Shown: positions 6,584 to 54,164, numbered from the stretch's first letter. The stretch: 64,000 bases of DNA from Candidatus Omnitrophota bacterium (GCA_043826565.1 JBDRPX010000003.1:3614-67613); one strand, 5' to 3'. A program made the numbers and translations. Notes: generated by a model from the sequence alone, not told the origin.

Positions 6584-6967
6584 ATGGCTGAAGAAAAACG
6601 CAAATTTATTCGTGTTAAGACCCGCAAGTCTGTAGCTAACTGCCGATTACTCGCAAATGAGAGATCCGGGGAAAGTAAATTCGCGGTTTGGCCGGTTAAA
6701 GATCTTGGAATCGGCGGAGCTGCAGTTTATTGCGAAGATGATATTCCTTTGGAAACCCTGGCCTATTTGAATATGGACCTTGATGTGATCAGAAGAACTA
6801 TTGGGGTTATTGCTAAAGTAATCTGGCGTCAGGCCAAGGATGCCGGATATGAATTAGGTTTGCGGTTTTGCTGGTGGCCGTTGACAGATGACCGGGATGT
6901 CATGGCTGATTATATTGAAAATAAAATAACTTATAACGATACTTCCGAGGAAGTATTACTAGGATAG
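6584..6967 (+). CDS. PilZ-domain protein (putative c-di-GMP receptor), 127 aa
   Basis: N-terminal RxxxR-type motif (KRKFIRVKTRK) and DxSxxG-type motif (DLGIGGAAV), as expected for PilZ. C-terminal FCWWPLTDDRD motif shared with the two other small PilZ proteins here. Confidence 0.7.
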   Translation: MAEEKRKFIRVKTRKSVANCRLLANERSGESKFAVWPVKDLGIGGAAVYCEDDIPLETLAYLNMDLDVIRRTIGVIAKVIWRQAKDAGYELGLRFCWWPLTDDRDVMADYIENKITYNDTSEEVLLG

Positions 6968-6978
6968 AGAACCATTCT

Positions 6979-6997
6979 CTCACCCCCGGGGTGAGGG
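6979..6997. repeat. GC-rich palindromic element CTCACCCC-C-GGGGTGAG(GG)
   Basis: Inverted repeat between the PilZ stop (6967) and the next gene. The same CACCCCCGGGGTGAGGG 17-mer recurs at 63982-63998. Confidence 0.6.
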
Positions 6998-7029
6998 AAT
7001 GGTTGGTAAATCAGGAGGAAATCAGGTTA

Positions 7030-9688: not shown

Positions 9689-10054
9689 ATGTCAGATAAA
9701 GAAAGAAGACAATACAAAAGAATTAAAGTTGAAAAGATTGGGGCGGATTACCGTCTTGTTGACCCTAATTTTTGGGCCCAGTCCAGAGCGCAGGGGAAAA
9801 ACAGTTTGCAGGATATTAGCCTTAGCGGAGCATCGTTTAATACCGGAGATATTTTGCCGGAAGATTCTGTTTTGGATTTAAATCTAAAATTGGGAAGTCT
9901 GATAAATATTGATGGGATTTGCGGCCGCATTGTCCGCGTACGAAAACTCACTAGCGAGAATTTTGAAATTGGGGTTGTTTTTTCCTGGTGGGAAAGAGAA
10001 GAAGATAAGCAAAATCTCGTAAAATTTATGGAACAAACCGGAACTAAACAATAG
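9689..10054 (+). CDS. PilZ-domain protein (putative c-di-GMP receptor), 121 aa
   Basis: ERRQYKRIKVEK (RxxxR) and DISLSGASF (DxSxxG) motifs. C-terminal VFSWWEREEDKQ motif. Confidence 0.7.
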   Translation: MSDKERRQYKRIKVEKIGADYRLVDPNFWAQSRAQGKNSLQDISLSGASFNTGDILPEDSVLDLNLKLGSLINIDGICGRIVRVRKLTSENFEIGVVFSWWEREEDKQNLVKFMEQTGTKQ

Positions 10055-10067: not shown

Positions 10068-10101
10068 GTTCCGCGAGCGAAGCGAAGCGCAAAAGCGGAA
10101 C
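10068..10101 (+). terminator. Candidate hairpin after the PilZ gene
   Basis: GTTCCGC (10068-10074) / GCGGAAC (10095-10101) 7-bp stem with a 20-nt loop and no U tract. Weak. Confidence 0.25.
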
Positions 10102-10551: not shown

Positions 10552-13500
10552 TTGATGTATTACTCAAACAAAAAATTCAGTCTCGGTTTTAAAATAATCG
10601 CTGCGGTGATTATCCAGGCTTTTTTGGTGACTGATATTGTTTGGGCTGCCGGTGGAGATCTCCGCTGGATAAATGATCAGGAGAATACATCACGCTCGGC
10701 TTCTAAAACTTCCTATCTTGCGCCTACCGCAAATATTAACAAAGGCATATTCCGCACAAAATTTGATTTAGTAGTTTCGCTTATTAATGCTATGGAGAAT
10801 CGGGATAATACGGAACTATTGGCTAAACATGGAATTAATGTGTTTAGTGAAAATGTCCTCTCTATTCAGGGTGAAAAAGAAACACTTTATATTTATGATC
10901 GGAATGCTGAGGGTATTCCTTTGTTCATAACCGGGGCAGAGCAAAAGATTATATTTAATGGGTATGTGATTTCTGCTGTGCCCAATGAAAATGCTGATGC
11001 GCAAAGTCTGAATGTTCCGGAGGGTCAGGCAAGTGTTCTGAGCCGGCGTGAATTTAGTGATAAGCTTAAAGTTTTGGAAACGCAGGGAAAGGACTTTAAT
11101 CAGGAGGAGGCTCTGGAATTAGTAAAGCAATCAATACTTTTAAGCGGGCTTACCGGTGGGCAGTGGAAGGATGAAAAGTGGGTTATTCAGAAAGATGCGA
11201 TTGTCTTGATGCAGAGCGGTATGGTTGTTCGGATGCCGACTTCTGCGGGTAAGACATTTGTATTTAACGGTACCGGGATATTAAGAAGCCTGGCCAATAA
11301 ACTAAATCCGGATGCGCAAAGGGAAGTATCTATTGTTCATACTGAAGAAGGCTTGATTGAAAGAGACGCGAGAAATGCCGGAAAAGTAAATGGCCGTTTC
11401 GGGCTGAAAACAGGATATGTTGTTTCACGTGATGGTAAAAGAACAGCTTATTTTGTTGATGCTAATGGACAGGAGCAGGAAACCACCGAGCAGGAGCTTT
11501 ATAAAGAAGCAAATATCGTTTATGTGAATATTTATAATTTCATCCATCGTTTTTTGGATGACCGGTTTACCGCCAGAAAAGCCGGGGATCAGGCTTTACG
11601 CTGGGGAGAGCAGACTTATTTTGTTGCCTTTGACGAAGGTGATGTTCCATTAAAGCACCATGTTTCTACGCCTTGTATAATTTCCGGAGGAGAAACCCTG
11701 AATGCGGATGATCTCGTGAAGCGGGCGGAACAGCTGCTTAAGATGCAGGAAATCATTGATCAGCTTATTCATGAAGGACTCTTGAATGAAGACGGAACCA
11801 GGGCCGAAAATGAATTAGCGGAAGTTAAAACTGGTTCTCAGACCGCGACTCTTACGAGAAAAGGAAAAGCCTGGCTTAAAGATAAACTTCAGCAGGTAGA
11901 GCAATACAAAAATAATCAAGGTAAACAATCTATTTTTGCGGATGATGCTTTATGGGAAGAGCATGTCGAGCAAGCGCTTTCCGCTTATTTATTTTACCGT
12001 AAAGGTGAAGCCTATAATATCTCCGAGAATAATGAAATCGTGATCATTGATAAAGATACCAGCGGTATGCAGTTAGCCGGAAGGCGCTGGAGCCATGGAC
12101 TTGATATTGCGGTAAGGTTAAAAGAAAACAGAACCAGAGATGAAAACAGTAAGCTGGAAATTAAACCTGACCAGATGACGATTGCTTCCATGATGCTTCC
12201 GGAAATCCTCAGCGATACGTTGGGACTTGTTTCCGGAATATGCGCGGCTTCGGCGACGATCAATAAAGATACCGCGGATATGTATGGTTTGGATTTTAAA
12301 TCTCTTAGCGGTGAAGCTTCCAAAAGAACAGAGCGGGTAATTATGAGTTCTGATCAGGCTGAATCAGCGCGGAATGCGCTTAAGGCAATTGATGTTCTAA
12401 AAGCGGGAGTTGCGGCTGATGAATCAATGCAGGATTGGGGCCTTCCGGAAAAATCAGGATCGGTATTAATCCGCTGTGATGGAGAAGTGCAGGTTCGTGA
12501 GTTTGCCGATTTGCTTATAGCAAATACTCAGATGAAGGGCCGGAATATCCGGCGGATTACTCAGGATGGGAAAATACTTGATGCCAGCGGCAAAGAAGTT
12601 CCGGGAATAACTATTGATGATCTTGATTCTTTGGTTAGTGATGAAACAATTGATAATGTAATAATTGAATTTACTTCCCAGAATCGCGAAGTGCCGGCGG
12701 ATGGGAAAATGCTTAAAGATCGGATAGAAGATCTTTCTCAGCATCCTAAAGTTATAATTGTATCCACACACTTAGCCGGACGCGGAGTTGATTTTAAGGG
12801 CGATGATATGGTGGTCATGTCTTTAAGCGCTGACCCGGCTGAAGAAACTGATGTGCAGTTGAGAGGCCGCGGCGGCCGTGACGGCAGAGTGGGTTACTTT
12901 TTCGGATTTTGGTCAGTCCAGGATGCGGTATTTACAAAATATACAAGTCTGGTTAATGAAGAACTGAAATATTTCACCGCTAAGGTTAAACCCGGACAAA
13001 CGCATACTTTTGAGATCACCAATGATAGTAAGACCGCGGGTGATAGTGAAAAAACTGTAATGGCAATGCGCGAAATAATAAACGCGCATAATCAGAATAT
13101 GCGGCGCGCGCAAAAAGCTTTTGGTGAATTATCATGGAATGAGGGGGATGAAAACGGTTTTGGCGAAGGTTTTGCCAGAACGCACTCCAGAGCCAGAGAG
13201 CGGATCATTTCTAAAGGAATAGAAGGATTAAATATTCCGGAGGATGTTTTAGCCGCGATCAAGACTAAAATCAGCAAGGTTGTTAAACAGAAGCGCAAAA
13301 CTCTTACCGGGATACCCAGCTCGGCAACGGTTATTTCGATATTAGAAGATGAGTTTGGGTTAAAGAATGTTGATGCTGATATTGCACAGCAAGCATTAGT
13401 TTCGGCACAATATAACCTGGAAATGGCTTTATTTACGGTTATTGCTGATGTGCTTCAGGCTAGAGCATTACAAATCGTTGATCAGCAATGGATGCGTTTT

Positions 13501-16500
13501 GTTACCGATTCAGAATACCAGAAACATCGGCTGGAAAAAGCACTGGCGAGATCGGGATATCGGAGACAGTTTATTCCCCAACAGCAGTTTGATTCGGAAA
13601 TAAGGCTGGTCATTACGGAAATTTTTGAACGGATAAATAAGGATACCAAACGGCGGCTGGGTGAAGGGGTTATCGGTCTGGCTCATCAACTTGCGGATAA
13701 AACTCCTACGGATACGGAAATGTCCGAAGCTAGCGCTGCCGCTCAACCAGACCGTGTCCCGTTTACGGCGCGCATGAAATTATTGGCATTAAAAATAATT
13801 CCTTCGGCAGTTATGATTGCGGCTAATGTCGGTCTGGCTTATGGACTGGGCTTAGTATTTAAAGGACTTACTTTAGGCGGGGTTGAAGCTGCTTCCGGAT
13901 TACCCATAATCGGAAATTTGATTACATTACTTCTCGGTTTGGGGCCGGTGGCACTTGTGGCGATTACTATTGGTACGATAATTATTGCCTGGTCACTTAA
14001 TTCTCAAATAAAAAGATTATCACAGGTTGATTCTACTATTGCGAAGATGGCTGAAGCTATTTCCTTGGGGCATAGGAAAAAAGCTAAAGAATTAGGAGCA
14101 ACGGTTGTTACTTCTTCATGGCGTAAAACTCTTACGGTTACTGCTACTTTCGCGCCGCTGGTCGCGGCCATGACTCTTTTTTCACTTTTAGGTTCTGCTC
14201 CTTTTACCGCGGGAAGTGTGGGAGTTATTGTCCTGCTGGCTTCAGCGGTATTAGGTATAATAAGTGTTGTTTCTTCCGGATTGCTCTTGGCGACTTCACG
14301 TAAAGATATGAAAAATGCCCCGAAACTTCCCATGACGGCAACAAAAAGATTTTTCCGCGGAATGATCGGAGGAGCTTTAACTATTTTAGGTATGGGAGCA
14401 TTTTTGTTCGCTTCCGGCGGCACTATGGGGCTGCCGATTCTTGCTGGTATCGCGGCGATTATTGCCAGCGGGTTTATTGCCCGTAAAATATTCTCTATAA
14501 GCAGTGATGATGTGGCCGCGAAAAAATGGGTTACTCCGATGGGTTTTGTCGCGGGTATCGCGGTCGGACTGGGAATTATTTTAGGGGTGGTCCCGTTCTT
14601 TGGCGCTCAGGTTTTTGAATCGATGACTACAGCAATGCAGACCGGAGCTATGCCCGGAGGCGGAGTGCTTAAGGTTGTGGGATATCTGGTAATGGGATTG
14701 TTTGCTTTTCAGGGAATAATGTTTGTTGGAGCTCAGCGCTATGCCGCAAAAAGAATTGCCGGGCAGGAAGGCGGGCTTACCGGAGAAACAGGACAGATAA
14801 AGCGTAAACAGCTGGGCTACATGATCAGAGCCTCAGCACTTAATGCCCGCATGGTCATGATCGCTGTCGGTGCAGTTGTCGGAATAGCTTTGCTGCTTAC
14901 CGGAGCATGGGTTGCTCCGGTTGCCGGATGGGGAATCCCGATGTGGGGCGCACGATTACTCGCTGCTTTGCCGGTGATGGCTTTATTTAGTGCCTTGGGA
15001 TTTGTTTTGCAGCGTTTTATTACTCGGGCATTAGATAAACCGGTAAATTATTCCTCTCTTGCCAAACGAAAAAGAAAAGATTTTCTCAGTATCCAATCGC
15101 AGTTAGAAAAGGTTGGCCTTAGAGATTTTTCAAATAATATCGGCGATGTAGTTAATGAATTTAAGAAGGATGTTGCTAAAACAAATAGTCCTTTGGAATT
15201 GGCTTATCAAAAGCTTGGCGGTATTTCTTCGGAAGATAAGCTTTTTCAGGCATTTCTTAATGAACTGCAGAACTCAACGCCTAATGACGGAAGATATTTT
15301 TCTCAGGCAGAGATTGATCATCTGGTTGCCAAAATACCGGAGGCATTATTAACTGCTCAACAGCGCCCGGTTTTCCGAAAAGCCGTTACCGCGGTTTTAG
15401 TTGAACTTAATCTGGCTAAAATCGGATTCGATAGATTATTCTACACTGCTTCCAATCCGGAAAAAATCACCAAAGGAATGAATTCTTTTCTTATGCCGCT
15501 TATGGGCACTTCTATGCTTGTGGCTGCTCCGACTGCTGCGGCAGTTGCCCAAAGCCAATATGCCGGAGTTCCCTATACTAATGTTGAGGTCAATGTCGCG
15601 GAAGCTCCGCAGAAGGTTCGGGATTACTATAGCACTTTAGCGGGGAAGATGTTTGAGACTGTTCCGGCAGAAGAAGATGCTGATGCCCAGGTTCTTCCAC
15701 AGCAGGGAACGATTGATTGGGGGACACAGGTTGAATCATTTACAGCTAAGCAGATAATCAGCCGGATAGAAAAAGACGCGGCGGAAAAATTTAATGCGGA
15801 TATTGAGCAAGCGCGGCAAGAAGCAGAACAAGCGCAGACCGAACGTGAGAAAATAGCGGCTAATCTGAAATTAATGGAGCTTGTTATTAACCGCAAGAAA
15901 TTTATTTTAGACCAGATTGATAAACATGCGGAGGTTACCGCGGAAGATAAACAAAAAGCAAAAGATATTTTAACCGATGTCAGCCGGCTGGAGGCACTTA
16001 TCCAGTATCAGCAGATGATTGATATGCGGGAAGAGATCCTGAATAACCAAAAAGAAAGACTGGATAAACTTCAGAAACAATTAGCTGCCGCAGCGGATCA
16101 GGTGCAAAAAGATATTCTAACGAAAACAATAGAAGATCTTAAAAAACAAATCCAGGAAGCAGAATTGACGGTTACCAGACATCGGGAAGCCTATGCAGCA
16201 CAGGCACAGGAAAAAGGAATCGATCCGCTGCTTTCTACTAAAGAGCTTACCGATCAAAAAGACCGGATGATTGCTTCGGTAATTGGTATTCCTGCCTACA
16301 TTATTAAATTGTCACAGGAAGTTGAAAGAATATTAAGTTCACAGCAGATGCTTAAACAGCAGGAAGAATTGTTGAATCTAAGGGAACAAGCCGAAGCTGA
16401 GCGTAAGAAGCAGGAAGCTGCTGAGCAAGCCAGAAGAGAAGTTGCGGAAAGAGCAGCAGCGGTAACCAGAGTAGATACGGTAACCGATGGTTCCGGACCT

Positions 16501-19500
16501 CCGCCGGAAGATAAAGAGCCGGCAGTTACACGGACAGATCCTGTTGCCGGGCCGGCTCAAAGAAGAGATTTTTCCGTGGCAGAAGTAAGCAGTGCTTATT
16601 TGAATAACGGCTACAGTCCGCAGGATGTTTCCGCTATCCTTAATACAGCAGATGCTCCGGCAACCGAAGCATTCCAGGGAATAATTCAAGCAAAAGGTGT
16701 GGCCTATTCTAAGCAGGCAATCCAGGATTTAATAAACGGCGGTTATAAAGAAGCGGATGTCTATGCCGGGGCAGTTACCGAACTTCAAATCAGAGGCTAT
16801 AATGCCGAACAGATCGTAATATTACTGCTTGATCCTGTAACCGCGGGCACAGAACCTACTGCCGAGCAGATGGAAAGAGCAAAGCTCTTAGCCGGTATAT
16901 TACTTAAAGGAGTAACCGAACAGAATAAATTGCGCGCGGCATTGGATTCTCTAATATTAATTCCGGAAAGATTAGGCGTTGATAGTCCTCCGGTTCAACT
17001 GGGAGCAATGCTTACCGGCCGGCCGTCGCTTAGTGATGTTTCTCTAAAAGCAAAACTTGACGCGCTGCAGCAGAAACTTGATAACAAAGAAAAAATCACA
17101 CAAGGTGATATTGACAGTGCTTATGATTTAGTCGAGAGAGTTCTTAAATGGCGGGTTGCTGAAACCGCATTAAAAGACATGGCTAGACAGCGGCAGCAGC
17201 AAAGGGAGCAATCAGCATCAACATTAGTTGCTCCGGTTGATGCTACAAATATTCCTCGGGCCATAATCGTAGATGAAGACGCGGATACGGTTACTATTCC
17301 CCGGGCAATAATTGTCAGCGAGGATTCAGATAATATTACTATTTCGCGAAAGAGCATTACCGAGGCTTCTCTTCCGGAGTTACCGGCATGGGGGCCTCAG
17401 AATGAAGGGATTTCAGATGTAGGAGTTTTACCGCCAAAAGACGCTATTGGTTCGGATAATATTATTATTCCCCGGGCAATAATTGTCAGTGAAGATGCGG
17501 ATACGGTTACTATTCCTCGGGCAATAATAGTTGAAGAGAATGCCGTGGCTAGCACTCCTCAACCGGATGCAGAACATATTGTCCGAAGCGGAGATCGTGT
17601 CGGTGAAGTCATGGTTGACCTGGCTTCGAATCCTACGCAGTGGCAGGCGATTGTAAATATTTACAATAAATTTGCGCATGATAATCCGCAATTGGGATTA
17701 AAATTAATCAGAGTTTCCGATGGTACTTCCGGAGTTAATATTTCCTGGGTCAATCCTGTGGATGCGGTAAATACTGCCGCGGGCTTGACCGTGACTTCTT
17801 TAGCCGATCAGCTTGCCGGTAAAAAAGCAGTTACTGCGGCAGATTTTGGTATTAGCCTGGATATTGACCTGGTGATTCGCATTGAAAGCAATGCCGACCC
17901 GCGGGCGGAAAACGCTAAGAGTAAAGCCAGAGGGCTGATGCAGATAATGAAAGAAGGAGCATTAGCCGATTGGAATAAATATCATCCGCGGGAACAGTAT
18001 TCTTTTGACGATATGTGGGACGCGGATAAAAATCGGAGAGTAGGCAGTTGGTATCTAAATCTAAGAATACCCCAGATGCTCCAGGCTAGTAATAAAGAGA
18101 TCACTTTGGAAAATATTTTATGGGCTTACAATGGCGGGATTAAAAAGGTGGTTGACGGTGTCCTTCCTAATGAAACCAGAGATTATATTAGAAAATATAG
18201 AGTCGGCCTAATAACAACCGCGGATAATCTTACGGACCGGATTACCGATCTTCTGGTCAGCAATGATATTAGAGGATTGATCCAGGTTGCCAGCGGTGCT
18301 AAGCCCGGGGAAGTCCTCGCAACTACAGCGGCGGCGCCAAAAGAGGGAACAGCAATAACTCAGGCTAAACAGCGGCTTTTAGAAGCTGTGGGGCGTTATC
18401 AGGAAATGGAACAAAGGTATCAGGAACTTGAACTGGAATATTCGCGTTACTTTGATGTTATTCAAAGCGGCGCGTATTTTCTGGATCTTAAAAAAGGTGT
18501 TATTGATGTTAATGCTGTAGCCAAGCTGAAACTGCAGTTGGAAAAGCTAAAGAAAGTTGATCTGGAATTTAGAAGAACCCAGTTGGAATTTATTCAGGAT
18601 TCTCTGGAGGCCTTAGAAGCGGAGATCAAAAAGCTGGAAGAGTCCGCGGAAACTTTACAGAGCAATGATGATATTCTGAATTCTTCCTTAGCCAGACTCC
18701 AGGAACAGATAGAAGAAACCGCAGCTAATATTACTTCTGCCGGAGTACAGATAGAAAAACTAAAGAGTTCATTGAAATTGTGGCAGCAGGCGCTTGCGGA
18801 TGTTAAAGCCGGGAAAAAGGTAAACATACCGCAATTACTGGGAATGGTCAGAGAAGAAGATAAAATATATGCCCAGCAGGTTGCCGCGGCGAAAAAAGGA
18901 GATGTTACACAATTAACCGCGGAGCAGACGAGATTGGGAATTGATCCTGATCGCGCTTTGATTATTACTAATGTACAAATTGATGCTAATGCCGTAATCC
19001 TGAATCAGGCAGGGATAGATATTAAAACGCTTAATTTGATGATCGCGAATAATCAGTGGCTAGTTCATCGTTTAGGTGATCGTGTCGAACTTGCTCCGTT
19101 TGCCGGAAGTTCTCCGGTCAAGATTGAATATTTTATTTTAGGACACAATTTAACACCTCTGGCCCGGGAAAGTGCTTTTAACACGGCGATCACCTATTGG
19201 GAAAAACAGCTCGAATGGGCAATTGCCGATATTCAATATCTGCAAAATATACGGCTTATTTCTCCGGAAGTTTCCGATGAAGAAAAGAAAATCATTCAAG
19301 GTCAGGTAAGTAATCTTCGGGATAAAGTGCAATTTGCTGAAGCTACGATCGCTGATCTTAGGGGTGATCTTGATTATTGGAAATTATCCCCCACCCAAAG
19401 AACTAATGCCCGGGCTCAGCTTGCGGTAAGGAAGTTGAAAGTAGTTAAAGGGAAAGTTTCCTTTTTTACCGACGTGTTAGCTTTGTTGAAGGATATGGAA

Positions 19501-22500
19501 GCTTTTGGCCGGAAGCAGGCCCAGGAAGGAGTAGATTACTGGCAGGTTGAAATAGATAAAGCGATAAACGAGCTTAATTTCTTAAATACAAAGATGTCAT
19601 CTTTACAAGCACAGCTGGCGGCGGATCCTACTAATGAAATGCTCAAGAAACTCATACCTATAGTTGAGCATCAGATCTCCAATAAAAAATTATATAAGAC
19701 TTTTGCCGAACATTCAAAACGGGATACGGAAAAAAATCTGGCTTATATTACTTCCGGCGGTATTGGTGAATCGCGTGCCGCGATCATTTCCCGGTTTAAA
19801 GCTCTGGCTGCCGAAGGGGCTGTTTATTATGAAGATACGACATCTTTAATCACCACCATGCTGCAATACCAGACCCTGGAGATTGATACAGGTATTGCTT
19901 ACTGGACAAAAATGAGATCTGATTCAGCTACCCGGTTAGAGCAGGTAGAAGCATATTTACAGGATTTTAATATTGATAATTTACCACTTGATCATCCGGA
20001 TAATATTTTCGGCGAAGAAGGCATCCCGGTTTCAGTTGACCGGAGAATGGCTTTGCAGCAGGCTATTCTTGATCCTAATAATGAGGCCAAAGATGCTCAG
20101 GGTAATTTTGTTTCCGCGGTCAAAGCTAAAAAATGGGCCCAGGAACAGCTGGCGGTTTTTGAACAGAGAATTACCGATGAGATGGCGAAGCCGGAAGCAG
20201 AAAGAAATCAAAGCAATTTGACTTTATGGCGCGCGGAAGTCCAAAAAAGGAAATTATATATTGCGAATGCCGATACGCAGATCAAGAAAGCAACCATATA
20301 TGTAAATACTCTGGGAATGCTTAAAGCTGCCTATATCGCGGAAAGGACATCCTTAGAATCATTAATTCCTTTATCTCGTTTAGAGCTTGATTCATTGGCA
20401 AAAAATAAGGCCTATGTATTAGGATCATCTTCGGAAACCGACGCGCAGTTTATTCAGAGAAATATTGATCTTATTAATGAAGAATTAAAATTTTATCCTT
20501 TAGCCAGACAAGCCGCGGCTTTGAAATTGGAATGGCTGGATAAAATTAAGCAGGATGCCGCGGTTATCCTTGGTGAAATATCTCCTGATACTCATTCTAC
20601 AATTGCCGCACTTGTGGCTGAGCATGAAAAAACAAAAACCGAACTTGAAAAACAGCTTGCTGAGGCGCAGGAAGGATTGCGTCTGGTCCAGGCTGAGATT
20701 AGTCAGGGCATGGCTTGGCTGGATAAACTGAATAACCGTGATCATGATGTCTTAACCCGTTTGCGGGAAAGACAGGAAAGCCGCCTGGGTCAGCTTGAGC
20801 AAATGATTCGCGCTAAGGGCAGAAAAATATATCAGGCTAATCTGATTAAAGAAGCGCAGCGTCAGATCGGCCAGGAAATTGAACGCTTAAAATCTTTAGG
20901 GGTCAGTGAGATCGCGATCGCGAACATAACCCGTAATCAGCGAAATGATAATTTCCCCATGGTTTTAGATAGAGCTTCGTTAGAAAAGTTTGTCCGTGGC
21001 CTTACCAGCAGTCCGGATGCTCCGCAGGATTTATTAAAGATAGCTCAGGAAGGTTTTACTCCGTCTAATGCCCGGGATATCTTAGCGCAGTTGGGATTGT
21101 CTTTAGAACGTATGGATCTAGGTGAAGATTATTATATTGTTACTCATCTTGGTTTTGGCGGGGAGTGGCAGGAAATGTACTTACGCTTAGGTAACTTCTT
21201 CGGTTCCCATAAAAATATTCAGGTCAGCCCGTTCATTTACACAGTGGAAGCTACGGAACCGCGGCGCGGTGCTGAGGGTATGGGATTGGTCATGGATATT
21301 ACCCCGGAAAATAAACCGATTTATTACGGTTTGGTAGTTGATATTTATAAACCAAAATATCAGCAGCTGGGCTGGGATTATTCCATGACCGAAGAAAAGG
21401 TCCGGTTAATGATCACCCAGGATTATACCATGCTGATGATGCCGGAAAAAGATGAAACCGGTAAACCGACCGGTGAGTATCGCGCGTTTGTCGGCGCGAC
21501 CATGTTCGCGGATATGCCGGCTAATTTGCAAATGGGAGAAGACCTTACAACGATTGGCGGTACTTTGCGCGCTGATCTAAAACTTACCGAAGCATTTAAG
21601 CTTAAAGGAATTATTTCCGGAGCAAGGATTATTGATCCGTATAATAAGAGATTTGAATGGGAGTTTGGGGATCAGCAATTATTCCCGGATGAAGTAAGAC
21701 GTTACGCGGCAACTGTTGAAGGACAGGAAATGAGTATGCTTTATGAACGCCTGGCCTTAGAAGTGGATATGTGGAAGCTTTTGAAAAAGAGCGGTAAACA
21801 GGTAGATACTGATCCGGCAAATAAAGAAAAGCAAGAGCGTCTGGATGCACTGGAACATCAGATCGGTAATATTAATCTGTTCTTAGAATTAGCAAAAGCA
21901 TTGCAGGATCCCCAGCAGGCAGCAACAGATCAGACTCAACAAAGAGCGAGAGAATATTATGCGGATACCACTGCTTTACTGGCTGTTTTGCAAAAGAGCA
22001 AAGATAAAGAATTACAGCCGTATATTGCTTTCTGGAAGAAACAGCAGGAGATCGCTTATATTATTAGTGAAGGTGGAAAACTGCCGCAGGAATGGACTGT
22101 TTATATGCAGGATGCGCAGACTCAGCTGAAAGCTCTTAAGAAAGTTCAGGAAACACTTGATGCCGACTTAAACTTCCAGAGAGAATTTACCATGCAGTTC
22201 TTTGTCCAGAATGAAAATAATACTGAAGGATATGATCAGGCTTCCGTGGGTATTGGGGTGGCTCATTCATTCCGCTGGAATCTGGTCGCTCCGATAGAGA
22301 CAAGAATTGCCGCAGAAGGCGCGGTTGGACAGCAGATGAATCAGGCGAGTATTGAAGTAAATAACCGTATCGGCGGTACTGACGGGGTTGATGTCGGTGT
22401 CCGGGCCAGCAGAAGAGGCGAAAGAAATACTTATATGTTTAGAGTGGCTAAGAAGGTTCTGGGTGTGGACTTAGCCGCTACTTACGGAGATCAATACGGA

Positions 22501-25500
22501 AACGGCCAGCCGAAACTTGGTATTGAAGCCCGTCAGAGAGTTGAAAAAGATGATGTGTTCCGGCAGGCCATAGGTGTTGCCGAAGATATCGACAGAGTAA
22601 CCAGCGGTGTGGATAAATTAAGAGAAAGCGAAGATGCTTTAAGCCGCGCGCTTGTCTATACACTGCGGAACAATTCACAGTTTTATGACACGATGATCGA
22701 AGCCCGGAAGAATGTTGTCGAAGGGTTTAGCCGCTGGGTAGCTGCGGTGGAAGCCCGTTACGGCGGTTCTATAGACACCGCTCAGGTGGAAGCGGAAATT
22801 AAAAAGCGCTTTTCTATTGATCTGGGCATTGATTTTACTTTGGAGCGCCGGGGAAGCCGCGAAGGGGATGAGCTGGCTTTGATCAGATTAAAAAGAGGTA
22901 TGGATCAGAGCAAAATCGTGATGCGCGATGCCATGAACGCGGTGACAAAAGCATATATTGATCTAGTTCAGGCAAAAATGGCTTATGAAGCTATGGATAG
23001 TTCCCGGGTGCGGGAATTGATCGCCGGGTCGGATAGTGAACAGGCTGTGCGCAGTTTGCAGGCGGAGACCACCAGATTAAGGACCGAATTTGAATTGCGC
23101 CGGGGCGCGTTTATCCGGTTGACTGGTATGTCGGAAAAAGAAGTGGATACGATCGTCGCCGCGGTTCCGAAAGTAGAAGTTCCGGAACGCGATGTTCCCA
23201 AAGTTATGGAAGTAGTCAATAAACAGATCCAGATCATGACGGCTCAGTGGGTACCCTTAATGCAGAGCGTGGAAGTAAAAGCGGAATTAAAGAAAGATTC
23301 TTTCCTGCGCAAATTATTCTTCTGGATTCCGGTCAAGAAAATCACGGTAGGATTTAATCCTTCGGATACAGCGTTCCAGATCGGTGATTTTGGTGTGCGT
23401 ATGAGCATACCGCTTACAGTTTATGAAGACGGAGCGGCAAAGAAGGAACGAGAACTTCCAGTTACCGTAGAAGGAAGAGCTTTGACCAGAGAGCAAAGAG
23501 ATTATATTCGGCAGTCCCAGTTTACTATGGGGGTTCTTCCGGAAAAAATGAGACTTACGGATATTACCTTAGGACAATTACGGCAGAGTGAACCTGTGGT
23601 TTTAGGAAGCTTGGAGAGCGCGGTAACCGCATATAATAATGTTCTTGCTTCCAGTGAAACAAATATATGGAGTCAGTTTGAACAGGCATCACGTGCTCTT
23701 TTTGAGAATATTAATCTCACCTTAGATCAGGCAGCTTACAGATCACATTTAGAAAATGAAAGAAAATATTATGAAACACTCCTGCCGGATAAAGACCGGG
23801 AAAAATTAGCTGCTGCGGTAACTCAAGTTACTTCTTCGCCGGCAACCGGTACAAATTTAGAAGAGATATTCAGAACTCACGTTGCTCCGACAAATATTAG
23901 TTTGGCTAATGCCCAGGATAAACTGGATATGGCTCGTCAGATACAGGGGGCAGGGTCTTCCAGTTGGTTTAAGGAATTAGTTGTTGATATCGGCCCGGGA
24001 ATTAGTGTGGGTAAGCCGACGGTATTACCGAGCGTGAATTTGGTTTTTGACCGGGCTCCTCAGGAACGTACTGCTCAGCGCGGATTAAGATCTCTCAGCC
24101 GGGAGCAGGAGACAGCTGTTGTTGCGGCGGAATTAAAAGGACGTTTCTTAGTGGCTTATTTAGATTATAAACGCGCGGAACAGTATCTGGCGTATTTAAG
24201 AAGCCAAAAATCTGATCAACCGACGGTGATTGCTGAGATCGGACAGGTGGAAAGAAATCTGGTGGAACGTAAAGCCGCTTTAAATTATATGCTCGGCCAG
24301 CCGTTTGACGCGGAAATTAAAATCAATCTTTCCTATGCCGAGGTAGAAGGGCAGATGGAAGCGTTATTCGGAACTTCTTTTGATAAGACAGTCTTAGAAG
24401 AAGAAGTTGCCCGGATTAAGATCAGAATTTTAGAAAAGCAATTAGAGATATTGGAAAAAGGCGGTACGGTTCGTCTGGATCTGCCGATTTCGGAAATCAT
24501 TGCTTCGGTTTCTTCGGCAAACCCCGGGCCTTTAGTCTGGTGGGCCGGAGTTAAAGTAGTTAACTGGTTTGTCTGGACATTCAGCGGAGCTAAAGAAAGA
24601 AACGAATCTGAGCAGAGGCAGTTAGTCAATAATGAAATTGCCAAAGCCCGTACGCAATTACAGCAGAGTATTACATTCGCTCAGGTATATAAAGCTCAGG
24701 CGATATCTGATACCGTATATGCCGACGATGATTATGAACAGGCAAAAGCCAGAGTGAGCACACAATTGTACGGTGTTTCCGATGCCGCTGCTGATCCGAA
24801 TCGAACACGCGGTTCTCCGGGACAGGTGCGTATGAGTATTGCTGGTTTTATCGGTAAAGTTGTAGAAAATGATATTCAGGTTACGATTGCCTTTAACAAC
24901 TTAGAATCGGCAAAGCGTGGTACCGGAGTAGATATTATCCCTTCAGTCCGGCCGCGCGGTTTTGAAGAAACCGGGATGAGATTTGGTTCTGATACGACTC
25001 TTTATACCGGCGTATTAGAACTCTTTCCGAATATCGAATACACTTACTTAAGCGATCAGCAGCGATCAGTATTAGAAATTAAAGCAACCGAACGTTTATT
25101 CAGAGCGGCTGTTGATAAAGCCCGTGCGGAAGCCACTTCACTTTTATACCAGCTTGCCTTGATCAATGATATTAGACAATCAATTCCGGGAAGTCAGGAT
25201 ATGGAAGCATTGATTAAACAGCAAAAAACCCTGGAAAAACGTTTAAAAGAATTAGCCCGGGTTGCTCCGGAAGCAGATTTGCAGATCGTGGATATGAATA
25301 CCTTGTCTTTGCAGACACTTGATTATTCACAGGCACAGATCGATGCGATGTCTGTTCCTATTCAGACCGCGCCGGAAATAGAGGCCTTGCAAGCCAGAGT
25401 TGATCAGCAGGTCATTATTGTTAATAATTTATTGAGAAGATTGGGCACTGTAACTCCGCGAACCTTGATCGCTCATATCGGCGGCGGGGATATCAGTGAT

Positions 25501-28500
25501 TTTGCCATGGGGCAGTATTTTGAAATACCGCGGGCCGCGGATATTGCCGATCAGATCCGGCCGCATGTTTACCGGATGATGGAAGATAAACTCCAGCAGG
25601 AAAAATTAACAAATAATCTTACCGCGGAAATACGGACCGCGATCAGTGACCTGAATGCCTATATGCAGCGCATGATCACCAGTAAAGCGGCGATGATGAG
25701 TTTCTACCGGGAATATTTAGCAAGTTTACAGCAGGTCAAGGATAAGCGGCTTACACAGCAAGAGCTTCAGGCTGCGGTTGATCAGTTTACCCGGCATCTA
25801 AAAGCTTATCTGGATAATGTCAATGCTTATCAGACCCGGTTCCATCATCTAAGCGCGGCTTTGAACATGGCGGGTATTGATACAGATACGCTTAGTTCGG
25901 GAACCCCGGCTGTATCCATGACGTCAAAACCGCGTTTCTTTGAATCATTACAGAGACTGGGAGTTAAAGCGGAAGATCAGCAGCGTTTGCTTTCTCCGGA
26001 AGAAGTCAGCACCAGTTTAAAAGCCGCGGAAAGTGATATTATTGTGCAGTTGAGACAGCTTAAAAACCAGATGCATGGAGATAGACAGCAGGTCATGGAG
26101 CTTATTATCGCCAGATATGAAGATATGCTCTCGGCATATCCTGTGGTGGTTAATTCTGTTTTAACTAAAGATGATTATTTTGAAGTAACCGATGAATTTG
26201 TCCGGGTTCAGATTATTCCTTTATATGAACAGCTGGTAGATATTGCTTATGATCAGGCAACGCCTTATGCGGTGCGGCAGAAGCTGGTTAAACTTATCGG
26301 CGAGGATGTTATTAAATACAAAGTGTTATTACGCGAATACCCGCGTGAAGTTGCCCAGGCGGTAATGGTTGAAGATACAATAAAGAAAATATTTGCCAGC
26401 TATAGTTCTCTCATGGGCCAGCTTGTCAGGGGCAGGGCTTTGACTGCCGGACAGCAGGCGGAATTGCAGGATGAGCTTGATGCTTTAAAACAATGGCAGT
26501 TAATTAGTCCGGTGTATAAAAAGCATAATATTGATAAGCAGGATTTACAGAATAAGATTGATGCGGAGCGTATTCTTTGGAATGCCGGTATCCGCCAGAC
26601 CACGATGAGTAATGAAGCTAATCTTCCTGACGCGGAAATCCCGCCGCATTTAGACGCGACTTTGCAGCCGGTTTATGAAACTCCTTTACAGATGATCCAG
26701 GCGGGAGTTCGTAAGGATGAATTAAGTGACCAGTTAAGAACTCAGAATTTTGACCTTGCGGTTGTGGATTGGGCCAGAGGAAACCGCTACAGCGTACTTA
26801 ATTACTTCAGATCGGTCGAAGAATTTGAAGCTTATCTCGCGAAGCATAAATTAAAAATGGAATTTTACGCGGAACTTTCTCCGCTTGAAGCGGCGGAAAA
26901 TCCCCTGGGCCGGGGCGCCAGACTATCCCGTTTTGAACTTGCTCCGCTGGAACGAAATAATATTTCTTATCAGGTATTTATTGTCAGAGAAGACGGAACA
27001 ACTCTGGGCAAGGTTGAATTCAGCAGTGAAATGCTTAAAGATAAGATCGAAAAAAAGCAGGCCTATATCCGGGCTCAGCATGCTCAGGCAGACCAGATGC
27101 TTAATGCCGGTTATGCGGTGCAGATGAGTACAAATCCGAATTATCCGGGATTCTGGGAAACTAAAGTTAGAGATTGGCAGGCCGCGGAGATCATGCCGGA
27201 AGTTGATCTAAAGGATAAATTACCTAAACTTAATGAGCAGGGTTTCCCGATTTTATATCTGGTTACTACAGATGCCCAGGGAGTACAGGTCAAGATCGAA
27301 ATCGGTGCGTACCGTTATATCCAGGGTAAATTGGTGGAAGTTAATCCGGATGAAGAAGATGTTAAATTTATCATTAAATCAACCATAAAGAATAATGACC
27401 CGGAAACCGGAGATCTGATACTTTTCGGAGTTAAGGCTATAGAAAGAAGAATCGCTCTGGTTACTTATGGTGAATATCTTACCCGGCTAAAAGCGATGAA
27501 TATGGCGGATTCAATTAAAGCCGGGGAACTGTGGAAAAAATTTGAAACTCTAACTCCCTTATTCGGGGCGATTACCGAAAGCTATCAGGCGGTCGGTGTT
27601 TCCCGGGTTGGGTTTAATCTGTGGATGGCTTTAAGCGGCTTAGGTTTGCCGAATACTCCAAAAGAAGAAGATATCCTGAATTTCTTTAAACAGAAATGGG
27701 GCGAAGACGATTACGAAAAATTCGTAAAGTTTATCATGGAAGCGCCGAATCCTTCGGATCCGGAACACGAGAAAAAATTATACGAGCATATTAACAGAAC
27801 CCTAGGTTTAAAAACCAAGCAGGAGATCGCTTACGCGAAATGGGTTCTTTACATGGTTGATAGTATCGCGGAGAGCACCGGTAAGACCAGAAATGATGAC
27901 GGCTTATTAAAAGGAGTCTTCTCTTATTTCCGCGGCACAGAAATAAACTTAATGACAATTGCCGGAGATGTATTTAAAGTAACCGATGCTCAAGGGGTAA
28001 AATTCTTAGGTAGAGGGATTACTGCCAGTACCGAAGGATGGCAGCGTTTAGCTACAGCTTATGGAATAACTTTTGATGTTTCCAGTTTATTTGATGTAAT
28101 CCTTACGGATAAAGAATTCCGGGATGTTAATTATGAGGATCTAATCCGTACCTATGCTTTTGGTTATCCGAAATTCGGCAATCCTGCGGATCAGCGTAAA
28201 TATCTCGGTCAATTAATGAATTCTTATGCTTTTGGTATGACCGTAAAACGTGACGGCGGATTCTTAGGCATTGGCGCTAAGACCGAACATTTATTCGGCC
28301 GGGTTTATCAGGATAAAGATGAGTTTAATAGGGCGAATCTGCAAAGAGTCGGCATGATCAGGCTGGCTAAACTGGGAATTGGATGGCCGGTTTATATTAG
28401 CCGTACGCCCGCAACTAATCCTAATACCGGAGCAGTGGAAGTAAGAGAAGAGATCATAATATTCGGCTTAAGAGGATACCATGATAGGCAGACAGAGTTA

Positions 28501-31500
28501 GCTGAAGAAAGCCTTAATAATGCGCATACTTATATCAGCGGACAACAAGGAGAGGGTTTAGTTATCGCCAATACCTATGGCCGAAGCGCGCCGATTGTCC
28601 GCGAGCAAACAGGATCTTTAGATCAGCCGGCACAGCGTCAGCAGATATATGATTTCTTATCATCGAATATAAACGGCCAAAGCGGAACAATTGCCGAGCA
28701 GCATCGTTTTAGCGGTGATAAAGGATTTACTCAGGATGAAGGCCAGGGAACTTTATACGGCAATTCTTTAACCGGATTTGTCTTTGATCTGGTGGACGCA
28801 AGATTAGAACAGCAGGCAATTACGGATTATGTCGTGGATACTCCGAGCTTAATGGTCTATCGTCATGATCCGACTTCTAAGCAGAGAAGCAGAACGAGGT
28901 TGATCGGCATATCTGATTCTTTTGATACCGCTTCTTATACCGGCCGTCCGGAGGAATTGTACGCGACAACCGGTCCGCAGGCATATTATGGCAAGAGATT
29001 ACTCGCGGAATATCAGAGAACCGGAGATAAGAAATATTTAGACCAGGCTTTGGTGATTTACGGATTGCTTAGGGAACGCCAGGTTGCTAACGGCGGTTTT
29101 ATAAAGGCTCCGCAGCGCGGGGATCTCCGGGATAGAGAAGAGGATCAGGATAAGATCATCTCTGGTGAAGAAAATATTGCGGCGCTCAGCTTCTTAAGAG
29201 ATCTTGCGGAAATTATCAAAGGTGATAAACAGTACCGAAAAATTAATAAAGATCTGAGCACAAGATTACATAATGCGGTTAATTTTGTGTATTCATCATT
29301 ATATGACAAACAGACAAATACTTTTACCCGCGGGTTAAACTTTGAGGATAATCAATGGCGCAGGGACGGTGTTATGGCCATAGATGTGCTTAATTTATTG
29401 ATCTTAGAAGAGGGCGCGGATAATCTCGCGCAGCGCATCGGCGCGGATAATCTTATCGTGTTATGGGACCAGAAAGAACGTACAACGCTTGCTGCGGTAA
29501 CAACACAGCGTGCTGACGGAACCAGTGTTACGGTTACCGGTCATGACTGGACAGATAGTACCGGCCGGGGAGATCGTGCTGCCGCGGTGTTTGTCGAACA
29601 GACTTTTATTGATTCTTTAGCGCATTTGGAAATGGCGGCATTATTTAAAAACGCGGGTAATGCGGCTCGTGCGCAGCAGGAATTAAATACCTATAAAACT
29701 CATTTAAGTGAATGTGATAAACTGGCGGTTCATGTCGAAGGCAGAGGAGTTGTTTATCCGTATGCGTCTATGAGCGGGATTAAGCCGTTTAGCGATTCAA
29801 ATCGGATAATCCCGGAGCATTTTGGTAATACTTCCGCTACAGCCTGGGGATTCTTTGCTAAATCCCGGTATAATCTTTTTGGTAATAGAACCCTGGATGC
29901 GGATACTGTTATTGATCGAGTTACTCCGAGTTTTACGAATACTTTGGCCGGCCGGATCCGGGAAGAAGCCGCCAGGCAGATAGAATTATTACCGAATAGA
30001 ATGCAGAACGCGGTGAATGGTTCCTATGAGAAAAAATTAACTTCCGGCCGTCAGTCAATTGATCAGGCCGTAGAAAAATTAGAAGCTTTAATGCTCCGCG
30101 CGGCGGATGATATTACTCCGAGTGTTGATGAAGATTACTTGATCGCTTTTGATAATGAAGCAAGTATATATTGGTTCTGGAGCGCGGAACAGCAGAAAGT
30201 TGTGGAAGTGACCATGATTGCTGATAGCGAGAGTATTAAACGTGACCTGGCGAATCTGCAATTATCTTATGAATACGCCAAATTGCGGCAGTCCATGCGG
30301 CAGGACAATCTAAGTGGTTTGGAAATTACAAGTATTGACGGTGCTCCCATACGTTTACCCAGCGAATTGAACACGCAAACATTAGACGGCCAGCCGTTCC
30401 ATATTCCGGCAGGTTCCGCCGGTGTTGTCATCGGTCATGATCTGCTTTTAAGAAAACTCAATGAAATTGACGCATTGCCTTTAGCGCAGCAGCGTCAAAT
30501 CGAACGCCGCGGCTGGATGCTGGTCGATACTCTCGGCAATATCCTGGGTACGGATGATAAAACACCGGTTCGGGTTCGTTTATTATTCCCTTCAGGCAGT
30601 TGGCAGAGAACCAGAAATAATCCGGATACCGGAGTAGAGGAGACATTACATTTTAGAGGCGGATATGGTTTAGAAAAAGTGGTTACGGATAATTATACTT
30701 CTATAACAAGTTATAATGAGGTCGGCCTTGCAAACCGGGTAATTACTTTTAAACGAGATGCCGGAGAAGAACCAAAAGTAAGAGAGCTTACCGGAAATGC
30801 GCTTGATGAATTCATCATGACCGGTAACTTTAAAGAAATTGCCGGAGTAATTGAAATAAGAAATATTACCGCCCAGGATTTTAAAGGCAGTATTGTTTTA
30901 GCTGATTTAGAGCCGGTAGTCGAAGAGTTTGTCAGAACGCATAGACAATATCTAATTGCCAGAGGTACTCTAAAGCGTGATAGTACCGCGGAAGAAAGAA
31001 AAGCGCTGGTGAAGACAATGTCCGCGGATTTACAGCAGCAGCTTATAGCTAACGGTTATTTAAATGAAAACGGAGATATTTTAGATAAATTTAAAATATT
31101 GCCTGATTCTACCGCGCTTAATATTTCTGATGAATTTACCAGGATGCGGGAAGCTGTTTATAACCGCGTTCTTCGTGCTCTTGATTGGCACAGGATCGGA
31201 TATAGCGTGGATAACCCGGTATTAAACGCGCAGCAGTTGGAAGTATTTACTCCGGCTTCCCGCCAGGCGACCTGGACAATTACCGATACGAAAGTTAAAC
31301 TGGCTTTTCCCAATGAATTCGGACATGTTCAGAGAGCGGATATCTGGCATCAGGATGGAACGATGGATCAGCCGAAGCGCGGTATTTTAGGCTGGCAGGA
31401 AACAACCCTAAACCGGGATAAAACAAATCATGAATTGACAATCCACAGTATTAATCTGCTGAATGACCGGGAAAAAGATACGGTTTTTGATTTATCCTAT

Positions 31501-46257: not shown

Positions 46258-46641
46258 ATGGGAAGAAGTAGTGTTATGGATATGATACAGGATAAACGTC
46301 AATGCAAAAGGCGGCGCACAAAATACGCGTCCATTAGTTTGCGGTCTCTGGACCCGCAGGCGTGGTTTAAGTTCTGGGGCGGCGCGGAGTGTTTTCTGCG
46401 TGATCTCAGTTTGCTGGGAGTGGGAGTTTACAGCCAGGAAAAGCTTCCTATCGGCACGCGCTTAAGCATTGACCTGCGTTTGGGAAAACAGGCCAGCAGT
46501 ATCCGGGTTTTCGGCCGGATCACCTGGACGGAAAAAGAGGATGATCAGTACCGCTCCGGAGTAAGCTTTTCCTGGTGGAGAGATGACCAGGATAAAAAAA
46601 TTGTCAGTAGTTTTGTGGAAAGACTTGGATTAGTTAACTAA
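46258..46641 (+). CDS. PilZ-domain protein (putative c-di-GMP receptor), about 120-127 aa
   Basis: KRQCKRRRTKY and DLSLLGVGV motifs. C-terminal SFSWWRDDQDKK. The start is ambiguous among ATGs at 46258, 46276 and 46282. Confidence 0.65.
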   Translation: MGRSSVMDMIQDKRQCKRRRTKYASISLRSLDPQAWFKFWGGAECFLRDLSLLGVGVYSQEKLPIGTRLSIDLRLGKQASSIRVFGRITWTEKEDDQYRSGVSFSWWRDDQDKKIVSSFVERLGLVN

Positions 46642-49918: not shown

Positions 49919-49926
49919 ATAAAATT

Positions 49927-52484: not shown

Positions 52485-52487
52485 GGA

Positions 52488-52503
52488 CAGGGCATGCCCT
52501 GTT
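52488..52503. repeat. Perfect 16-bp palindrome ACAGGGCATGCCCTGT
   Basis: Self-complementary sequence 4 nt after the stop of paralog 1, with no U tract. It could be a weak terminator or a protein-binding site. Confidence 0.5.
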
Positions 52504-52567
52504 CGGTATAAAGGGTATATCCGCCAAAAAAACTTGGCGGATCATTTAAGAAAGGAGGAGAAAGGTT

Positions 52568-53218: not shown

Positions 53219-53242
53219 TCATTTAGTTTGATTGATTTGTAA

Positions 53243-53282
53243 AAAGGGTAGGGGCAAAAATAATAGCTTCTACCCTTTTTTC
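53243..53282 (+). terminator. Rho-independent terminator
   Basis: AAAGGGTAG / CTACCCTTT 9-bp stem followed by TTTT. Confidence 0.6.
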
Positions 53283-53387
53283 GCCTGTTTTATTGCGGAA
53301 AATCTGGGTTGAATTTTTTAGCCGGATGATATAAAATATAAACAATAGCCGGATATACGGCAGCCATTAAAAAAGGGAGGATGGAAA

Positions 53388-54044: not shown

Positions 54045-54068
54045 TTTTACATATTAACAATATAATCA

Positions 54069-54110
54069 GAAGGGTAGGGGCTCTGTTAGTGTTGCTTCTA
54101 CCCTTGTTTT
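54069..54110 (+). terminator. Rho-independent terminator, sequence-related to the one at 53243
   Basis: AAGGGTAG / CTACCCTT stem followed by GTTTT. Confidence 0.6.
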
Positions 54111-54164
54111 AAAATAACTCAAAAGTATCAATTTTTGGAAAGGGGTTTAAAAAAGGATTTTATT

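Follow-up and report, generated by a model that had tools for sequence, protein, structure and literature searches.

Giant proteins of Candidatus Omnitrophota are among the largest proteins known and are common in this phylum; for the class of membrane-anchored, SecA-fused giants, an attack on, or attachment to, other cells is presumed. Open reading frames (ORFs) of more than 20 kb were reported for most Omnitrophota classes (Seymour 2023, PMC10066038), and a 2026 preprint identified proteins of at least 10 kaa (thousand amino acids, aa) on 24-28% of Omnitrophota contigs, described an architecture cluster with SecA-DEAD (PF07517) and noted the absence of beta-barrel calls (10.64898/2026.06.07.730766). 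In the work of West-Roberts (2023) the giant genes were found to encode divergent SecA DEAD and preprotein-binding domains devoid of the scaffold and wing domains, together with many transmembrane helices and, as a less common domain, SLT; small pilZ genes were identified directly downstream, followed by genes for glycosidases and carbohydrate uptake, with type II secretion system (T2SS)-like genes nearby (10.1101/2023.11.21.568195). Within the same work it was proposed that the SecA-like part exports its own protein and that the giants bind and digest the cell walls of prey (10.1101/2023.11.21.568195). Here, a stretch of DNA of 64,000 nucleotides is described (the window, positions 1-64000, meaning the whole stretch), which harbours a gene for a protein of 11,888 aa (~1.3 MDa) that is probably a member of this class, i.e., a giant membrane-anchored protein with a fused divergent SecA-like ATPase. 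A preliminary description of the locus had proposed for 13775-25200 a possibly new kind of trans-envelope secretion or attack machine encoded in one polypeptide; as both the kind of protein and its proposed action had already been published, this novelty does not hold, and the finding mainly re-discovers a known class. One feature that may, tentatively, be new is a TolC-like segment; the searched literature on the class mentions neither a helix/beta-hairpin TolC-like module nor an N-terminal leader of the type described below ('TolC' has 0 occurrences).

The giant ORF (10552..46218, + strand; Table 1) extends over 35.7 kb without any in-frame stop, whereas each of the remaining five frames contains 432-1122 stops within this span; given the base composition, a stop-free frame of this length has a probability of ~1e-338. 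Considering this, the GC content at the three codon positions, which is even from end to end, and an AGGTGA ribosome-binding site just 5' of ATG 10555, the probable start codon, the giant ORF is a real gene. Giant ORFs from metagenomes can in general be chimeric, but nothing was found that favours an assembly artefact or a dead gene in this case, and collinear homologs in independent assemblies cover the N-terminal 1,700 aa as well as aa 2589-7288, so that such an origin has a very small probability. The range of the preliminary description lies inside this ORF, with 13775 coinciding with the start of a block of ten membrane helices, but is too narrow, as it comprises aa ~1075-4883 only. With regard to size, the giant ORF exceeds the limits of >20 kb (Seymour 2023) and at least 10 kaa (2026 preprint) and stays below the 90 kb of West-Roberts. 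Its source is judged to be Candidatus Omnitrophota because the loci closest to its SecA-like module and all homologs of its middle part that were looked up derive from metagenome-assembled genomes (MAGs) of this phylum. Next to the phylum of its nearest relatives, it shares with the described giants the SecA DEAD and preprotein-binding domain without detectable scaffold and wing, many transmembrane helices, long domain-free stretches and the occasional SLT domain, as well as a pilZ gene directly downstream, glycosidase and sugar uptake genes further downstream and pilin-like genes nearby. At 11.9 kaa the example is small enough for a part-by-part analysis.

The SecA-like ATPase module (aa 184-800) comprises two nucleotide-binding domains (NBD1 and NBD2) and the preprotein-binding domain. 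Pfam identified SecA_PP_bind (aa 422-521, 2.5e-9), Helicase_C (aa 723-778, 3.5e-5) and a weak match to DEAD (aa 212-364, 0.0028), whilst relatives of the module match SecA_DEAD (PF07517) at 1e-13. The best PDB relative is SecA (2.6e-10), with an alignment that spans Walker B, the preprotein-binding domain and the NBD2 motifs. The NCBIfam SecA model matches at 4e-25, but reaches 88 bits as compared to a family cut-off of 814. Like in SecA, two nucleotide-binding domains and a preprotein cross-linking domain can be discerned, and the Walker A, DExD and arginine-finger-type motifs are retained (MPTSAGKTF as Walker A, DEGD, AGRGVDF and QLRGRGGRDG). Unlike SecA, the giant protein possesses no helical scaffold, two-helix finger, wing or C-terminal linker that could be detected, nothing aligning past NBD2 in PDB and profile searches for the scaffold, wing and C-terminal domains, and its module forms one covalent chain with the ten-helix membrane block as well as with the presumed substrate. 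A two-helix finger suggested by eye for aa 972-1030 was discarded: its score was reached by 79 of 500 shuffles, and a hidden Markov model (HMM) built from three giants gave no alignment to SecA in this region. The SecA-like motor of the preliminary description is hence real, but lies before the range that was given for the apparatus.

When one genome per species was scanned for the SecA-like module, two relatives were identified, both with 59% identity, both from Candidatus Omnitrophota MAGs and both located in open frames of more than 4,150 codons which run off the fetched DNA (L002 9455-21922; L003 1687-14238). Sequence alignment with these is confined to aa 2-1699 (52-54% identity), beyond which the chains are unrelated except for a domain found at aa 6131-6507 of the giant protein. 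Right after this core, both relatives carry Peptidase_M23 (1e-16 to 1e-18) and LysM, i.e., at the place where the giant protein has coiled coils and SLT. Because the similarity ends after aa 1699 and M23 and LysM replace SLT, the comparison suggests a fixed core, consisting of leader, ATPase, ten helices, linker and an 11th hydrophobic segment, to which a swappable peptidoglycan-directed payload would be attached. The payload enzyme of the giant protein, the peptidoglycan-cutting SLT domain of the preliminary description, was recovered at aa 2440-2533 (PF01464, 4.4e-10) with 39.6 bits and thus above the gathering cut-off of 21.3. Like family 1 lytic transglycosylases (Slt70-type), it possesses the ES, GLMQ and AYNxG motifs, namely a catalytic-type Glu-Ser in RIESNADP (aa 2443-2450), GLMQIM and AYNGG; different from these enzymes, it is embedded in a giant chain between coiled-coil-like stretches and is exchanged for M23 peptidase and LysM in the closest relatives.

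The core starts with a leader composed of a basic stretch and a hydrophobic helix of the pattern '..I(I/L)QAFL..D..(W/F)A(A)GG', which terminates in Gly-Gly with an acidic residue at position -8 and is followed ~15-20 aa later by '(C/Y/H)L(A/S)P'. This leader has no family match and may represent a dedicated sorting or processing signal. It is likewise found in the two closest relatives (L002 ~9554, L003 ~1882) and in a further locus (L008 5132-5320; 49% identity over aa 2-64, E 4e-14), where it heads a 1,615-aa polytopic ORF which is devoid of a SecA module and directly precedes a second large ORF, P0001. Within the window four ORFs bear it, i.e., the giant gene (10555-10662), 6991..9669 (leader 6991-7150), 46820..48202 (46820-46960) and 62335..63813 (62335-62480).

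Hydropathy analysis identified ~30 membrane-type segments, which are arranged in blocks at aa 1077-1487, 8551-8569, 8951-9301, 10014-10282 and 10822-10867, and no strong hydrophobic segment between aa 1666 and 8550. The inner-membrane polytopic block of the preliminary description corresponds to the first of these and consists of ten helices, with 28 Lys and Arg in its inside loops as compared to 3 in its outside loops. As a consequence of this bias, the positive-inside rule places both ends of the block in the cytoplasm, including the SecA-like module and the stretch following helix 10 ('AKRKRKDF'). After a linker of 159 aa an 11th hydrophobic segment (aa 1647-1665) follows, which looks like the core of a signal peptide, is kept in the two closest relatives, whose similarity to the giant protein stops just after it, and would serve as an internal export or start-transfer signal. 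Provided that it crosses the membrane, aa 1666-8550 (6,885 aa) would be located outside the cytoplasm, as both the flanking transmembrane segments and the substrate of the SLT domain fit this location. With the helix at aa 8551, which is followed by seven Lys/Arg within 20 residues, the chain would return to the cytoplasmic side, where charge bias also places the segments between the C-terminal polytopic blocks, i.e., most of the last third. The resulting layout would be that of a ~6,900-aa exported loop anchored to the inner membrane at both ends and not that of a linear inside-to-outside series. The idea of functional parts placed in series on one chain was thus partly borne out: ATPase, transmembrane block, helices and SLT occur in this order, but the outer-membrane element is unproven and the chain returns. 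The preliminary description had named as contrary evidence the lack of an OEP-like fold together with a topology that leaves all soluble domains on one side of a single membrane; as the topology suggested here places soluble domains both in the cytoplasm and beyond the inner membrane, this combination is not given.

On this basis, the following mode of action can be suggested. Leader and SecA-like ATPase (aa 184-800) would reside on the cytoplasmic face, tethered to the ten-helix block (aa 1077-1487), and, following the 159-aa cytoplasmic linker, the segment at aa 1647-1665 would start export of the ~6,900-aa loop, which carries the heptad-rich helices, SLT, the helix/beta-hairpin module and glycosidase-like domains. 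By means of a stop-transfer helix (aa 8551) the chain would then rejoin the membrane, and the last third would follow as polytopic membrane blocks with cytoplasmic inserts. In accordance with the published proposal for the class, the SecA-like motor, being tethered in cis, may help to thread its own loop across the inner membrane, and the exported loop may act within the envelope or at the cell surface by attachment and cell-wall cutting, whereby either the own wall or that of a prey cell could be the target. Via the flanking PilZ proteins, the giant protein would be regulated by cyclic di-GMP (c-di-GMP), and its functional partners would be the glycosidases and the sugar transporter encoded nearby. 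Class membership, layout and mechanism, taken jointly, are considered likely. What is gained beyond the published description is threefold, namely a delimited core (aa 2-1699), a payload that appears swappable and peptidoglycan-directed, and a giant loop that would be anchored at both ends; these points make the published self-export idea experimentally specific.

Several observations weigh against this reading. The topology results from our own hydropathy and positive-inside calculation and has no trained predictor behind it. The N-terminal leader resembles a signal peptide or signal anchor and, if it was one, the ATPase would be non-cytoplasmic; such a location is unlikely given the ATP requirement of the enzyme and the distribution of charges in the ten-helix block, a point which is settled by argument alone. 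Nearly 80% of the giant protein is without a domain recognisable in Pfam and PDB sequence searches, the latter giving no match for aa 5126-11888. The giants of West-Roberts exceed 30 kaa, with genes of >90 kb, as opposed to 11.9 kaa here, and Pfam matched neither the glycosyltransferase, methyltransferase, NUDIX and peptidase set of the Archaeovorin subtype nor the dockerin/TSP3 repeats of the Dockerin subtype. Different from the described loci, no T2SS cluster is recognisable upstream, where four large ORFs in 10.5 kb have no Pfam or NCBIfam match; such a cluster could lie beyond the window edge. Finally, the 11th segment is weakly hydrophobic, with a hydropathy score of just 1.51. Without a membrane crossing at this point, the middle part of 6,900 aa would be intracellular and the protein a membrane-tethered cytoplasmic scaffold, in line with the 2026 preprint, where 46% of long Omnitrophota proteins were predicted to have transmembrane segments only, with their bulk on the cytoplasmic face (10.64898/2026.06.07.730766). 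In the cytoplasm, however, an SLT domain with its catalytic motif would find no substrate, and in the relatives the peptidoglycan-directed M23 and LysM domains directly follow the same segment; moreover the segment is conserved, and the helix at aa 8551 shows the charge pattern of an outside-to-inside crossing. A scaffold of this kind is hence regarded as highly improbable.

The exported loop need not persist as part of a single chain. The protein could be translated as a whole and subsequently be cleaved into an ATPase of the membrane, lytic enzymes that are secreted and a membrane protein from the C-terminal part, so that the single chain would exist only as a precursor. Cleavage was raised as a possibility in the published description of the class on account of the C39 or S8 peptidase domains of some giants; here, the leader ends in its Gly-Gly motif, an Ala-x-Ala-like 'AVAQS' similar to a signal-peptidase site terminates the 11th segment, and in another genome the equivalent parts are split into adjacent ORFs, i.e., the 1,615-aa leader-plus-transmembrane ORF followed by the 6,932-aa P0001. 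Pfam scans, on the other hand, found no peptidase domain in the giant protein or its neighbours. A polyprotein is thus considered possible but doubtful, and it would be compatible with, and not opposed to, export of the loop by a core-encoded motor.

Another alternative derives from the segment at aa 4030-5125 and takes up the region with TolC/OEP-like motifs that the preliminary description had suggested, weakly and by eye. Structure prediction for this module, which rested on an eight-sequence alignment, suggests ~six units in series, each consisting of a helix, a beta-hairpin, a long helix (38-69 aa) and a return helix. In the predicted models this order of elements resembles that of protomers of outer-membrane factors (OMFs, the TolC family, e.g., TolC, OprM, CusC and CmeC; PF02321). 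The last unit (24-aa helix, hairpin, 69-aa helix, 38-aa helix) has element lengths which are reminiscent of a TolC half-repeat, and several of the predicted strands alternate hydrophobic and polar residues. Two tiles were modelled, aa 3880-4900 with a predicted local distance difference test score (pLDDT) of 53 and a predicted template modelling score (pTM) of 0.36, and aa 4030-5125 with pLDDT 54.5, pTM 0.27 and no barrel closure, whereby the strands (pLDDT 33-57) were less confident than the helices (55-72) and represent the least confident parts. When compared to the PDB using Foldseek, all of the 16 best-ranked matches of model 1 and most of its first 36 were TolC, OprM, CmeC, VceC, CusC, SilC or MtrE (best E 1.1e-3), and all top 40 matches of model 2 were OMFs (best E 1e-4, probability 1.00), with alignments of 410-470 columns, i.e., the whole protomer, and template modelling scores of 0.34-0.44.

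Profile searches of the same module revealed nothing significant. Pfam OEP (PF02321) was not found at E<=0.1 on large tiles or at E<=10 on eight sub-tiles, the NCBIfam TolC-family models did not match, a PDB profile search with the module family profile gave no match, and hhalign against a profile of E. coli TolC, CusC and MdtP yielded 0.9% probability. This OMF profile is thin because the TolC homolog search listed only ~90%-identical TolCs. The best profile-profile alignment spans the full OMF half-repeat in register with P 0.0076 and 5% probability, as compared to P 0.2-0.6 for coiled-coil controls from the same giant protein; an OMF half-repeat HMM gave negative scores only, with three of its five matches inside the module. 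No significant mutual similarity was found by hhalign among five units delimited by eye. A hand-made expression, 'strand-P-x-x-D-G-G', was discarded as OMF signature, as it did not match the positive controls TolC and CusC. What can be stated for the module is hence that the order of local structure is OMF-like in the models, with fold identity and homology not established.

When aa 3880-4900 were searched exhaustively using HMMER, seven representatives out of 1.84 billion were retrieved, all seven of which are collinear with aa 2589-7288 of the giant protein (24-45% identity); a word-indexed homolog search gave no match with the TolC-like tile or its family alignment. Six of the seven were looked up and are 'hypothetical protein' entries from Omnitrophota MAGs, and two, P0002 and P0006, which derive from one MAG and have overlapping ends, represent one giant gene with transmembrane block, SLT and middle module in the same order. 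The module does not belong to the conserved core, because the closest relatives are without it in their first ~4,150 aa.

These data bear on the idea of a single-chain trans-envelope conduit in which motor, inner membrane, peptidoglycan cutter and a TolC-family-like outer-membrane duct (aa 4030-5125) are linked. In its favour, OMFs rank first for two separately predicted tiles, the units stand in series, several predicted strands alternate hydrophobic and polar residues, the half-repeat aligns in register better than the controls do, and the module is conserved and collinear in seven Omnitrophota proteins. This is opposed by the poor quality of both models, by the lack of Pfam OEP, NCBIfam and PDB-profile matches, hhalign probabilities of 1-5% and negative HMM scores, by units that do not match each other, and by the chain itself, which rejoins the inner membrane 3,400 residues later, so that distal domains would remain periplasmic; in addition, the closest relatives lack the module in their first ~4,150 aa. 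The conduit is therefore considered unlikely. Somewhat less probable still is its most specific form, a single-chain pseudo-trimeric duct in which six half-repeat-like units would replace the six of the TolC homotrimer: no barrel was formed by the tile with all six units, to which the sixth had been added in order to allow barrel closure by AlphaFold (pTM 0.27), so that this form is not supported, although with so shallow an alignment it retains a low probability. The conduit would resemble tripartite efflux pumps and type I secretion systems with TolC, as well as the T2SS, in its parts list of ATPase, inner-membrane component, periplasm-spanning helices and outer-membrane channel, and a T2SS-type pseudopilin gene is located in the window; these systems, however, consist of separate proteins with defined stoichiometry, as opposed to one chain with an unproven outer-membrane part. 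Pfam and NCBIfam found no homologs of membrane-fusion proteins, ABC transporters, GspD, GspE or GspF in the window. If the TolC-like module was real, cytoplasm and outer membrane would be connected by one covalent chain, and the module would provide a structural basis for giants reaching or piercing an outer membrane, their own or that of a prey cell.

Returning to the loop anchored at both ends, the long coiled coils of the preliminary description are matched by heptad-like stretches of up to 150 aa (aa 1734-1883), as identified by a crude score. At a helix rise of 0.15 nm per residue, a continuous helix of 150 residues measures ~22 nm, which is of the order of the periplasm width. Further heptad-like stretches occur within a mostly helical region that forms the start of the middle module (aa 2589-7288) collinear with other Omnitrophota giant proteins. 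Just upstream of SLT, four to five copies of the short peptide repeat 'TIPRAIIV(S/D/E)ED(A/S)D' were observed (aa 2233-2327, 17248-17532). A second (alpha/alpha)6-like domain at aa ~8080-8500 is not claimed, its basis being just a 16-residue motif match. The C-terminus harbours a tandem duplication, the two copies of which each consist of a coiled coil with a terminal element of the helix-hairpin-helix-like pattern 'ITANALG.TVG.MAL.II.ERGANGAFTS' (Pfam HHH_6 at 1.7e-4 and thus below threshold); a whole-protein self-BLAST gave no off-diagonal matches, and the duplication surfaced only by direct pairwise comparison. The homolog P0001 (L008 9995-30799) carries a genuine 1,3-beta-glucan-synthase domain (PF02364, 2e-22) and GT2 in its C-terminal membrane part. 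For the giant protein, a glucan-synthase (FKS) motif assigned by eye ('HISEDAAGIH', near aa 9927, before the third transmembrane block) was rejected, Pfam giving no match at E<=10, and the similarity of aa ~9920-10280 (~40300-41400) to the glucan synthase of P0001 is not significant (BLAST E 0.01-0.055).

Table 1. Coordinates of the giant gene, of the parts of its product and of neighbouring genes (TM, transmembrane; RBS, ribosome-binding site).
Feature	Position	Strand	Basis or remark
Giant ORF, 11,888 codons	10552..46218	+	Probable start ATG 10555 after AGGTGA RBS
Conserved N-terminal leader: basic stretch, hydrophobic helix 'IIQAFLVTDIVWAAGG', then ...YLAP	10555..10662	+	Common to relatives and three other window ORFs
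SecA-like ATPase module (NBD1, preprotein-binding domain, NBD2), aa 184-800	11101..12951	+	Pfam, PDB, NCBIfam, motifs
First polytopic block, ten TM helices, aa 1077-1487	13780..15012	+	Hydropathy
11th, weaker hydrophobic segment, aa 1647-1665, 'MPLMGTSMLVAAPTAAAVAQS'	15490..15546	+	Hydropathy; conserved in relatives
Putative exported loop, aa 1666-8550, 6,885 aa	15547..36201	+	Flanking TM segments, SLT substrate
Longest heptad-like (coiled-coil-like) stretch, aa 1734-1883, 150 aa	15751..16200	+	Crude heptad score
SLT lytic transglycosylase domain, aa 2440-2533	17869..18150	+	Pfam, motifs
Long, mostly helical region, heptad-like at aa 2664-2753, 2906-3025, 3176-3256	18349..20931	+	Crude heptad score
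~six predicted units of helix, beta-hairpin, long helix (38-69 aa), return helix, aa 4030-5125	22639..25926	+	Predicted structure
Domain common to relatives but located elsewhere in them, aa 6131-6507	28942..30072	+	Weak GH76-like Pfam matches in relatives
TM helix aa 8551-8569, then K-rich stretch	36202..36258	+	Hydropathy, charge
Further polytopic blocks, aa 8951-9301 (eight helices), 10014-10282, 10822-10867	37402..43152	+	Hydropathy
C-terminal tandem duplication, aa ~11040-11420 and ~11430-11810	43669..45981	+	Pairwise comparison: 36% identical, E 2e-51
PilZ-domain gene (c-di-GMP receptor family), upstream	6584..6967	+	Pfam
PilZ-domain gene directly upstream of giant gene	9689..10054	+	Pfam
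PilZ-domain gene directly downstream of giant gene	46258..46641	+	Pfam; position fits published pattern
MFS_2 sugar transporter, two GH2_C/GH72-like glycosidases, three paralogous ~220-aa secreted proteins	48431..55421	+	Family searches
728-aa ORF (signal peptide, C-terminal ...VYQGKF; possible outer-membrane protein) overlapping T2SS-J-like pseudopilin gene (61479..62189)	59356..62189	+	Sequence features

The genes surrounding the giant gene were likewise assigned (Table 1). PilZ-domain genes bracket it, which points to c-di-GMP control of the locus, and a 656-aa ORF further downstream (57374-59344) shows a PilZ-like N-terminus ('RRKYIRL'), followed by a transmembrane helix and a coiled coil. 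Sugar uptake would be mediated by an MFS transporter here, as opposed to the binding-protein-dependent uptake described for other giant loci. An outer-membrane protein and a pseudopilin had been described as encoded just downstream; both genes are present, the former as a possible outer-membrane protein, but they lie 13-15 kb past the stop codon of the giant gene. The 728-aa ORF in question has no Pfam or NCBIfam match and overlaps the listed start of the pseudopilin gene by 64 nt, the true start of which is probably a later Met before 'KKGLTLIEIL'; the pseudopilin matches N_methyl at 5.8e-6 and T2SSJ at 2.2e-4, the latter below the gathering score.

Between the two glycosidase genes, three ~220-aa paralogs with signal peptides are located (51807-54044), two of which closely resemble one another ('VFGVYYDRG.RNNH..PSGWMGD.GD..MN'); no family match was obtained for any of the three, which may be carbohydrate-binding proteins. 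The MFS transporter, a 460-aa leader-bearing ORF and a PilZ gene were found identically on a 13.5-kb Logan contig (L001, SRR26275510), meaning that public reads for the source organism exist. All plausibly coding ORFs of the window are located on the + strand, the - strand ORFs of at least 120 aa all being nested, as judged by position, inside + strand ORFs. The GC skew is positive in each 2-kb bin, so that the cumulative skew climbs monotonically, and both this and the strand bias are consistent with one long co-directional leading-strand gene block.

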